Shown here piece by piece: positions 58,201 to 59,034 of a stretch of DNA of 64,000 bases. The notes beneath the pieces are model-generated. The model saw only the letters and a program-made list of their open reading frames with translations, made no database searches and was not told where the DNA came from. The first letter of the stretch is position 1, and every line of letters starts with the position of its first letter. Source of the stretch: a virus; the IMG/VR virus record IMGVR_UViG_3300045988_096557, one strand, 5' to 3'. A program made the translations under genes and the position numbers.

Positions 58201-59034
58201 ATGATTATAGGGTTATTATTAATTACTATAATCGGGTTAATAATTTATATCTATTATCTCAAGAAACAAGAGCATCAAATAATTGAAGTTAATATAGATA
58301 ATTAGAGGAAAAACTCCGAGATAGAATAGGAAATAAAACATAATAGAGAAGTATTATCTAATATAAAAGAAAATATATACTCTGAAAATGAAATTCTTTC
58401 TTCTCTAGTAAAATCTTAGGAAGAAATGCGGGAAAATGCACAAAAGCAAGCTGATGAGGCATACTAGATTCGCATTTCCGCACTTTTAAAATCCTATGAA
58501 GAAAAAGAAAATGAGCTTACTATGACTTTTGATGCTAAAAGTCAAGATTTATCAAATAAAATTTCTATCGAATCCAGTAAATTAGCGGATTTACAAGCTA
58601 AACAACTTGCTTATATTTAGGCTCAACTAAGATAGGAAGAGATTGACTCTAATCAAGATTACTATCGTTTAGCTCTTGATGAAATTGATATAAATGATAT
58701 TACATTATTGCGTGAGTTGCAACCTAGATTTGTCAAAAAAGAAAGCATAGATAAGTTAATATGGGAAGTGTATTATAAACCAGCTTATGATATATTAACA
58801 GCTCGGTTATTCCCAAAAGCAATTAAATATTGTGGGATTTATAGGATAACTGATTTGACCACTGGGAAATCCTATATAGGATAGTCAGTTGATATAAAAG
58901 AACGTTTTAGACAACATATTAAATCTGCTTTAACTTACGGAAAAGCAACCAATAAACTATATTCTACCATGTAGAAATCTGGAGTTCAGAAACTTATTGG
59001 ATTGAGTTTTATAAAACGAAAGATTTTGGTTTAA
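58201..59034 (+). CDS. Cryptic GIY-YIG nuclease-family protein with N-terminal TM helix; 8 in-frame TAG; absent from the standard-code ORF track
   Basis: Frame 1 has no TAA/TGA for 277 codons; CGIYRITDLTTGKSYIG*SVDIKERFRQH has the GIY..YIG..R..H spacing with TAG where Q/S is usual. Confidence 0.5.

Follow-up and report, generated by a model that had tools for sequence, protein, structure and literature searches.

A TAG-rich gene for a predicted membrane-anchored GIY-YIG nuclease in a phage that reads TAG as glutamine, and a frameshifting deletion in one copy of it

How should one read a stretch of viral DNA that standard gene calling leaves empty, and in which one frame nevertheless remains free of two of the three stop codons over several hundred codons? 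The question is raised here by positions 58201 to 59034 of IMG/VR virus record IMGVR_UViG_3300045988_096557, a stretch of 64,000 nucleotides (nt) that we shall call the window, all positions being counted from its first letter. The window is phage-like: its GC content is 36%, its long open reading frames (ORFs) all lie on one strand, and it carries 31 tRNA genes as well as a transfer-messenger RNA (tmRNA). Our answer is that the locus is, with high probability, a genuine protein-coding gene of a phage that uses genetic code 15, where TAG stands for glutamine; that its native product is a protein of 303 amino acids (aa) in which a transmembrane (TM) helix, a stalk and a linker precede a GIY-YIG nuclease domain; that the gene has a fixed place in a block of DNA-metabolism genes; and that the copy present in the window carries a 55-nt deletion.

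An open frame that depends on reading TAG as glutamine

Translated with the standard code, the region gives three short fragments (34, 32 and 58 aa) and nothing longer, as expected from the remark, made in an earlier reading of the letters alone (the original prediction), that the standard ORF track is empty here. In frame 1, eight in-frame TAG codons and not a single TAA or TGA precede the terminal TAA, and our recount of the 277 codons agrees exactly with that prediction. The first bases of these TAG codons are at 58303, 58327, 58417, 58465, 58615, 58630, 58876 and 58975 (codons 35, 43, 73, 89, 139, 144, 226 and 259), and each of the five remaining frames of the same 834 nt contains 12 to 31 TAA or TGA codons. 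When the 834 nt were submitted to 5000 dinucleotide-preserving shuffles, with the run scored over any of the six frames, the longest stretch without TAA or TGA averaged 79.6 codons (standard deviation 18.5, maximum 195) and none of the 5000 reached 277; an analytic estimate based on window-wide trinucleotide frequencies places the probability of the frame at about 3e-7, in a region where the GC content is 29%. The open frame is far beyond chance, and the suspicion that its length was improbable in DNA of this composition proved well founded. Among ORFs of at least 100 codons that do not overlap tRNA genes, its density of 2.89 TAG per 100 codons is also the highest in the window, the next being that of an endolysin-like gene at 49557-50966 (1.92); within this scope, the claim that we are dealing with the most TAG-dense gene of the window holds.

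What TAG stands for can be read from relatives. In the DNA of four of them (contigs L008 to L011, with 83%, 78%, 62% and 54% protein identity), the columns that hold TAG in the window hold TAG, CAA or CAG. The reverse swap is found too, CAA columns of the window being TAG in relatives, including at the conserved YIG-Q-S, RFR-Q-H and M-Q-KSG positions, and TAG alternates with CAA or CAG at columns 146, 151, 156, 185, 239, 249 and 269. Taking all TAG columns together, the residue that stands opposite TAG is most often glutamine (37 of 117, against a background of 7.5%), followed by lysine and glutamate. The genes of the relatives contain 8 to 16 in-frame TAGs each. With TAG translated as glutamine, the ratio of nonsynonymous to synonymous substitution rates (dN/dS) comes to 0.08-0.13 over the whole gene, 0.2-0.3 in the coiled-coil-like stalk and 0.03-0.04 in the C-terminal half, which comprises the linker and the nuclease domain; judged by these values, the gene is under purifying selection. 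Read-through of TAG is needed as well in other genes of the window whose reality is not in doubt, namely a NAGPA-SPOR gene (2 TAG), tail-fibre-like genes (2-5 each) and ThyX (1). On this comparative evidence the window phage reads TAG as glutamine. The view that the gene is real only if TAG is a sense codon is upheld by the exchange of TAG with CAA and CAG, by a dN/dS of about 0.1 and by the presence of a phage-encoded tRNA with anticodon CUA.

This amber-suppressor tRNA (see the table below) folds into a canonical cloverleaf, with a U1:U72 mismatch and G73. ARAGORN labels it 'tRNA-Pyl', a name that we rejected because it derives from the anticodon alone and the cloverleaf is canonical. Its anticodon arm (GGTCTCTAAAACC; tRNA at 27477-27552) and that of the phage tRNA-Trp (GGTCTCCAAAACC; 15840-15914) differ solely in the anticodon, and the suppressor may have been derived from tRNA-Trp rather than from tRNA-Gln. 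The tRNA array extends from 10178 to 28613, where the 31 tRNA genes include two for tRNA-Gln (UUG and CUG), and the tmRNA, at 16751-17066, specifies the tag peptide DNDYFENYLAA.

It is established that TAG is recoded by means of suppressor tRNAs and that this is enriched among genes acting late or in lysis (bioRxiv 10.1101/2021.08.26.457843; PMC10607447), and its use for glutamine in gut phages is already known. Elsewhere in the window, the endolysin-like gene at 49557-50966 (Phage_lysozyme2, Amidase_2 and SLH domains) has nine in-frame TAGs, and the gene with NAGPA and SPOR domains lies beside it at 48700-49554; the SLH and SPOR domains suggest a Bacillota host whose cell-wall polymers bind SLH domains. 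The single TAG of ThyX (59334-59960) is at 59472-59474. Several plus-strand ORFs (2447-2947, 50963-51298 and 51425-51889, among them a 166-codon ORF and a 154-codon RNase H) contain no CAA, CAG or TAG at all, which is unusual at a glutamine usage of about 3%.

Protein architecture and the 55-nt deletion

Among the 337 relatives that a protein search brought up, those nearest to the window copy (98-100% identity) are 303 aa long and cover 95-96% of the query. Residues 1-20 are uncharged and the TM helix is directly followed by KK, so that, according to the positive-inside rule, the bulk of the protein is predicted to be in the cytoplasm. Then comes the stalk, some 130 residues long and carrying six of the eight TAG codons, which in the model has a shape typical of an oligomeric coiled coil. 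A TM helix and a coiled-coil region had both been named in the original prediction, and both stand, with the helix at residues 2-20 and a hydrophobic periodicity of 3.5 in the stalk. The helical linker that follows is the best-conserved noncatalytic part of the family; it matched no Pfam or PHROG family, and the family profile compared with the PDB gave only noise for stalk and linker (EsxA, ATP synthase subunit b, E>0.05).

The identity of the C-terminal domain as GIY-YIG, also part of that prediction, was established with Pfam PF01541, where the window copy scores 25.8 bits, above the gathering threshold of 22.6 (E=1.4e-5), in a match confined to positions 2-34 of the 78 in the profile; the intact relative P0001 reaches 36.9 bits over positions 2-74 of 78. 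The window protein displays the motif string CGIYRI...SYIG(TAG)S and contains CGIYRITDLTTGKSYIG*SVDIKERFRQH, with two TAGs inside its part of the domain (YIG-Q-S and TM-Q-KS). PHROGs, NCBIfam and PADLOC all group the domain with homing endonucleases of the I-TevI type, and the family profile finds in the PDB the I-TevI catalytic domain (E=1.1e-8, residues 211-297), to which identity is 27-29%. In 22 diverse members of the family, residues Y214, Y225, G227, R235, H239, E282 and N297 are invariant, and they align in order to Y6, Y17, G19, R27, H31, E75 and N90 of I-TevI. The AlphaFold model of intact P0001 (mean confidence score, pLDDT, 86.6) displays the fold of three-stranded sheet and helices proper to GIY-YIG domains; in a Foldseek search of the PDB its top matches are the I-TevI entries 1ln0 and 1mk0 (E about 1e-4, target-normalised template-modelling score, TM-score, 0.79), followed by UvrC (1yd6). 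The intact protein stops six residues past N297. At E<=1, PADLOC matched homing-endonuclease models (E=2.4e-11), UzuA (E=4.7e-9, in the C-terminal domain) and, weakly, ZorA and ZorB, and nothing besides; the UzuA match is limited to residues 210-298, against model positions 183-277 of 278, that is, to the shared GIY-YIG domain. Pfam, searched at E<=10 with the window protein and at E<=0.01 with P0001, gave no DUF4041 or T5orf172 match. Two viral UniProt entries share the full-length fold in a search of BFVD, A0A345BPZ2 (304 aa) and A0A8S5RTR9 (242 aa), with query-normalised TM-scores of 0.75 and 0.61 and 31-32% identity. Taken together, profiles and models show that the family encodes a strongly constrained I-TevI-type GIY-YIG endonuclease domain, placed on a predicted membrane anchor and stalk and devoid of a DNA-binding module. 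The catalytic domain is a standard GIY-YIG; the architecture of TM helix, stalk, linker and GIY-YIG domain is undescribed in phages.

Each claim of the original prediction thus holds, but one thing could not be seen from the letters of the window. What had been described as a C-terminal GIY-YIG core is only the N-terminal half of the domain, because of a deletion in the window copy. Aligned at the DNA level to four contigs with an intact gene (L002-L005), the window shows a single gap of 55 nt at 58987/58988 and otherwise one single-nucleotide difference in 1 kb. The intact relatives end in ...KSGVHNFTFEILEEVSRENLNERETYWIEFYKTKDFGLNTTRGGS. The deletion takes out residues 263-281, that is, strand beta3 and the start of the catalytic helix, and it shifts the frame, so that Glu282 (equivalent to E75 of I-TevI) and Asn297 (equivalent to N90) are left out of frame. 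The last 15 codons of the ORF (58987-59031, QKLIGLSFIKRKILV) are out-of-frame sequence made by the deletion, and its end at 59034 is not the native one: the native stop is equivalent to position 59057, where the TAA of the remnant (59055-59057) overlaps the ATG of the downstream gene (TAATG). The true gene thus specifies 303 aa, and the window copy is frameshifted and has lost its catalytic end. With the catalytic Glu and Asn lost, the window allele is predicted, if the deletion is real, to be a nuclease-dead, membrane-anchored remnant. In this respect, T4 endonuclease II (EndoII) is inactive when the matching Glu is changed to Ala (E118A; PMC2764454), and PDB entry 1mk0 is the E75A mutant of I-TevI. 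Two ways of rescuing the lost motif were considered and rejected. The out-of-frame 'NERFWFKYY' found past the stop is not a shifted ERE-YWI motif, as the true tail of the relatives (ETYWIEFYK...) is in the other frame; and programmed -1 frameshifting would not regain the tail, as the junction lacks a slippery heptamer and the product would in any case be 18 residues short.

Is the deletion real? It might be an artefact of assembly or sequencing, or a minority variant picked by the assembler, in which case the phage really carries the intact 303-aa gene, a possibility that we hold to be unlikely but deserving of serious attention. The junction sequence was found neither in viral contigs nor in JGI metagenome contigs, and a look-up of the exact 277-aa product among about 15 billion proteins gave nothing, whereas intact P0001 is present on 81 contigs. 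Strong purifying selection on the family, and the fact that the window and six intact-gene contigs are otherwise 99.0-99.96% identical over 10.8 kb in an essentially gap-free manner, speak for the same explanation. However, no repeat flanks the gap that could have misled an assembler, the microhomology being 1 nt only; clean internal deletions seldom arise as assembly errors; and natural loss-of-function alleles of toxic nucleases are plausible. If real, the truncated allele is a natural knock-out.

The family to which the gene belongs is large. A profile search of 1.84 billion representatives returned at least 739 clusters (at 50% identity) with E<1e-30, and among the best 150 clusters listed, matches are mostly full-length, at about 300-330 aa. 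Ten clusters of distant members were looked up: none has a name and all are metagenomic. The contigs with full-length relatives in GTDB range from 27 to 151 kb, several of them measuring about 147-151 kb, and are binned with metagenome-assembled genomes (MAGs) of Eubacterium, Oscillospiraceae, Lachnospiraceae, Clostridia and Tenericutes; the relatives correspond to genomes of about 147 kb in gut metagenomes associated with Bacillota. Nucleotide comparison (blastn) of 57800-59400 with GenBank phages gave no match. In a tblastn search of 50,697 GenBank phage records, made with the window protein, intact P0001 and one standard-code relative, only Phass-1 shares linker and nuclease at strong E-values; three Synechococcus phages match weakly (E about 8e-5, residues 168-303), and all other records match in the GIY-YIG domain only. 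Phass-1 (OQ749652.1, our L001), the nearest GenBank phage, has been assigned to the 'Caudoviricetes code 15 clade'. Models in Pfam, PHROG and PADLOC reach no further than the nuclease domain of the family, and this large, unnamed, non-mobile family is a clear case of a conserved gene hidden by standard-code annotation. Positions 3455-4435 of Phass-1 form one frame free of TAA and TGA, with 8 TAG, that encodes a full TM-stalk-GIY-YIG protein; the record splits this homologue into two hypothetical coding sequences (3455-3595 and 4001-4435), a mis-annotation in an entry that declares code 15.

Table. Positions of the gene, its parts and the associated elements in the window
Feature	Positions	Strand	Description
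ORF as present in the window	58201..59034	+	277 sense codons, 8 TAG read as Gln, then TAA
N-terminal TM helix (predicted)	58204..58260	+	residues 2-20, IIGLLLITIIGLIIYIYYL; Kyte-Doolittle 2.61; helix in AlphaFold model
Coiled-coil-like stalk (predicted)	58273..58650	+	residues 25-150; no Pro/Gly; 3.5-residue hydrophobic periodicity; one long helix in model
Helical linker domain	58651..58830	+	residues 151-210, DYYRLALDEIDINDITLLRELQPRF.KKESIDKLIWEVYYKPAYD; two short helices
GIY-YIG domain, N-terminal half	58831..58986	+	residues 211-262; GIY and YIG tyrosines, Gly, Arg235, His239
55-nt deletion junction	58987..58988	+	lost DNA ATAATTTTACCTTTGAGATTTTAGAAGAAGTTTCAAGGGAAAATTTAAATGAGAG, encoding NFTFEILEEVSRENLNER
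Native 3' end remnant, out of frame	58989..59057	+	encodes ETYWIEFYKTKDFGLNTTRGGS*, including Glu282/Asn297 equivalents
Amber-suppressor tRNA, anticodon CUA	27477..27552	+	ARAGORN; Rfam tRNA 59.8 bits
Terminator-like hairpin	58163..58197	+	12 bp, 7 G-C, and T-tract; between upstream 88/91-aa gene and ATG 58201, ends 4 nt before ATG
Upstream neighbour	57883..58158	+	91-aa ORF (88 aa in relatives), no TAG, probably helix-turn-helix
Downstream neighbour	59057..59332	+	91 aa, own GGAGGA ribosome-binding site, no TAG

Genomic context and possible role

The order of genes around the locus is gyrase B and A, ATP-dependent ligase, small genes, the 88-aa gene, the hairpin, the nuclease gene, a 91-aa gene, thymidylate synthase, a TrmB-like gene, YorF, AAA_24, YorH and DnaB. 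It is constant in all lineages examined, even where ThyX is swapped for ThyA and dihydrofolate reductase (DHFR). From 99% down to 35% protein identity, the 88-aa gene is directly upstream of the nuclease gene, the 35% case (L017) being a standard-code relative. In Phass-1 the 88-aa gene is directly downstream instead, and the pair adjoins NrdD and NrdG. Judged by this constancy of place, the gene has a settled position within the phage DNA-metabolism block and is not mobile.

We can only propose a role by analogy. The nuclease domain would be cytoplasmic, carried by an oligomerising stalk; the stalk would bring together at least two single-site GIY-YIG domains, permitting double-strand cuts in the absence of a separate DNA-binding domain; and the tether would confine the enzyme to DNA located near the membrane. 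The most likely role, put forward tentatively, would be an attack on non-phage (host) DNA at the membrane, similar to that of T4 EndoII, which would feed the ThyX, ThyA-DHFR or NrdDG pathways and contribute to host shut-off. This proposal is based on the gene neighbourhood and on the EndoII precedent. In T4, denA, the gene for EndoII, sits among nucleotide-metabolism genes. EndoII and the present family are both phage GIY-YIG nucleases without a separate DNA-binding domain, with a likeness that is at the superfamily level; the T4 enzyme is soluble, small and early, and T4 DNA is protected by hydroxymethylcytosine, whereas the present protein is predicted to be membrane-anchored, is gated by TAG, and no DNA modification system was identified here. 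EndoII, which acts as a tetramer, initiates the breakdown of host DNA and the scavenging of nucleotides (PMC2764454). Other roles, such as the processing of branched DNA where replication or packaging takes place at the membrane, share what remains of our expectation. A membrane-tethered GIY-YIG nuclease would offer phage nucleases a new route to discriminate self from non-self.

Ranked next, and somewhat doubtful, is a role in superinfection exclusion or in competition between elements, where the tethered nuclease would cut incoming DNA at its point of entry. The membrane anchor alone offers a rationale for choosing targets by location, and a screen of the E. coli pangenome (Vassallo et al. 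2022) found an anti-phage protein in which a membrane-anchored coiled coil (DUF4041) precedes a C-terminal nuclease (PMC9519451). The order of parts is the same in both cases (membrane anchor, coiled coil, C-terminal GIY-YIG-type nuclease), and the C-terminal domain resembles UzuA, of the Uzume system, in PADLOC. That resemblance is confined to the nuclease domain, however, and matches to DUF4041, to T5orf172 or to any full-length PADLOC model are lacking in the searches described above, where only homing-endonuclease, UzuA and weak ZorA/ZorB models came up. Furthermore, the E. coli protein belongs to a bacterial defence island, whereas the present gene is in the replication block of a large phage, among genes of nucleotide and DNA metabolism and not among early exclusion genes, and its heavy use of TAG argues against early expression, when exclusion matters most.

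Could the gene encode a mobile homing endonuclease of the GIY-YIG type, free-standing and lodged between conserved neighbours? In PHROGs, NCBIfam, PADLOC and the PDB, what the catalytic domain most resembles are homing endonucleases of the I-TevI type (PF01541; 1ln0/1mk0), with which it shares fold and motifs, and the gene is very TAG-rich, as are the genuine homing endonucleases of relatives. We regard this as very improbable, since the constant place beside the 88-aa gene, in all lineages examined and down to 35% identity, is not that of a mobile element. Where homing endonucleases of this type have a C-terminal DNA-binding module, the present protein ends right after the GIY-YIG domain, the only one that Pfam finds, without NUMOD, IENR1 or helix-turn-helix module, and has a predicted N-terminal TM anchor, stalk and novel linker instead; in the window copy, the equivalents of I-TevI E75 and N90 are missing too. 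Unlike the nuclease gene, real GIY-YIG and NUMOD genes come and go in the same loci: free-standing GIY-YIG homing endonucleases, some with NUMOD1 (those of L008 and L009), are variably present (L008 7306-7968, L009 7303-7965, L010 2533-3177), and the window is without the one found between the TrmB-like gene and YorF (60390-60409).

That the TM helix and coiled coil form an Rz-like inner-membrane spanin or another lysis factor, in a gene of the lysis programme, is scarcely credible: residues 1-86 match Rz-like spanin families of PHROGs weakly (E=0.012 and 0.032), and the TAG density is akin to that of the endolysin-like gene; but such E-values are at noise level for a TM and coiled-coil composition, the positive-inside rule puts the C-terminal part, a DNA nuclease, in the cytoplasm, the gene is 7 kb from the lysis genes and within the replication block, and the hosts suggested by the MAG bins and by the endolysin with its SLH domain are of the Clostridia type, in which one would not expect spanins. 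We give next to no credence, lastly, to the region being a decayed pseudogene or noncoding spacer of a standard-code phage with TAGs as true stops, since the fragments of at most 58 aa to which standard ORF calling leads are set against 277 codons (303 in relatives) without TAA or TGA at 29% GC, a dN/dS of about 0.1 across the TAGs, their interchange with CAA and CAG, an encoded tRNA-CUA, and in-frame TAGs in the endolysin, tail fibres and other essential genes as well; together these refute it.

Several features of the neighbours deserve mention. The 88/91-aa protein is better conserved than the nuclease (69% against 35% identity in L017); its Pfam match to 'Cas9_a' is under threshold and probably meaningless, and the TrmB-like gene at 60014-60409 is possibly a distant paralogue of it. 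The 91-aa gene on the other side is always directly 3' of the nuclease gene, with overlapping stop and start in intact relatives; its product has a Walker-A-like GNRCTGKT and a Walker-B-like FVIDEVE, its sole Pfam match being a weak one to AAA_14, and it may be a partner or a regulator of the nuclease. ThyA and DHFR occupy the position of ThyX in L010 (6195-7516) and L011 (6227-7593), with 3-4 TAG each in L010.

TAG usage, the terminator and expression

How does so TAG-rich a gene fit among its neighbours? TAG represents 8 of its 20 glutamine codons, as against 2 of 94 in the flanking replication genes (51890-63020; Fisher p=8e-6). The same contrast is found in L002, L008, L009, L010 and L011, where the nuclease gene has 8-15 TAG, making up 41-63% of its glutamine codons (p from 0.015 to 7e-10), and the flanking gyrase, ligase and replication genes are almost TAG-free in all five lineages counted. 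The positions of the TAGs turn over between lineages, so that the conserved feature is dependence on suppression and not given codons. In every lineage the first TAG comes shortly past the TM helix, leaving an unsuppressed TM peptide of roughly 20-46 residues; in the window, with the first TAG at codon 35, only a 34-residue TM peptide is possible without suppression, as befits the complete suppressor dependence that had been announced for this gene. As a conserved feature of the family, the gene stands out, downstream of a terminator, as an island dense in TAG amid a replication module that is otherwise free of it.

In-frame TAGs in conserved genes, together with a phage tRNA-CUA, are common to the window phage and to the code-15 gut phages (Phassvirus or 'Caudoviricetes code 15 clade', Lak, crAss-like and 'gemstone' phages). 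In these, TAG is found mostly in genes for structure and lysis while early replication genes avoid it, and the predicted hosts are Clostridia; the same is true here, and there is no difference in principle. What is special in the present case is that, among genes of some size, the highest TAG density belongs to a nuclease gene in a replication block otherwise free of TAG. This contrast with TAG-free neighbours provides a sharp natural test of recoding as a timer of dangerous genes.

Upstream of the gene, a strong terminator had been predicted at 58164-58197; we find the 12-bp hairpin, with 7 G-C pairs, and its T-tract one nucleotide earlier, from 58163. Of 11 lineages, 10 have a hairpin with a T-tract at the same place, and a position kept in spite of stems unrelated in sequence argues for a functional terminator, which would insulate the nuclease gene from a small operon under the strong sigma70-like promoter at 57587-57615. 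In the window lineage there is no Shine-Dalgarno sequence before ATG 58201, no convincing sigma70 promoter or leaderless start was found between terminator and ATG, and no sigma70-like promoter exists from the terminator to the next strong promoter at 59957-59985. Full-length protein would be made only once the phage tRNA-CUA is active, and its messenger would arise from read-through of the terminator or from an unrecognised phage promoter. TAG dependence, the terminator upstream and the missing Shine-Dalgarno sequence would together keep early synthesis of a potentially toxic DNase shut down and its amount low. From these sequence features we infer that expression is low and delayed, which fits the published view that recoding delays the translation of late and lytic genes (bioRxiv 10.1101/2021.08.26.457843).

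One may go further, in a speculation that we consider rather improbable, and see in the amber codons a translational safety catch on the GIY-YIG DNases of these phages, the membrane-tethered, stalk-oligomerised protein being then a new class of effector that would choose DNA, whether the host chromosome or the incoming DNA of a competitor, by its location at the membrane and not by sequence or modification. In favour of this view, the tethered nuclease (41-63% of glutamine codons being TAG in the five lineages counted) and the homing endonucleases (9 of 10 in L008 and L009) both form islands of TAG amid replication genes otherwise free of it.

A number of facts weigh against the account given here. 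The suppressor tRNA is 71% identical to the phage tRNA-Trp as compared with 68% to the phage tRNA-Gln(UUG), hence not clearly derived from the latter, so that decoding as glutamine rests on the comparative evidence. The deletion is private to the window, junction and product being absent elsewhere in the collections searched, as would be expected of a possible assembly artefact. Oligomerisation of the stalk and membrane topology are predictions, the role is proposed through guilt by association with the ThyX, ThyA-DHFR and NrdDG neighbours, and no mechanism by which the phage would protect its own DNA was found. Not all nucleases of the window are TAG-rich, as neither RNase H (51425-51889) nor PIN-PhoH (47390-48646) has any TAG, and the timing of expression is deduced from codon usage alone.

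The two promoters mentioned above are near-consensus sigma70-like sequences, TTGACT-17-TATAAT (57587-57615) and TTGACA-17-TATTAT, the latter with an extended TG (59957-59985). They bracket the unit formed by the terminator, the nuclease gene, the 91-aa gene and ThyX, which is itself without a comparable promoter.

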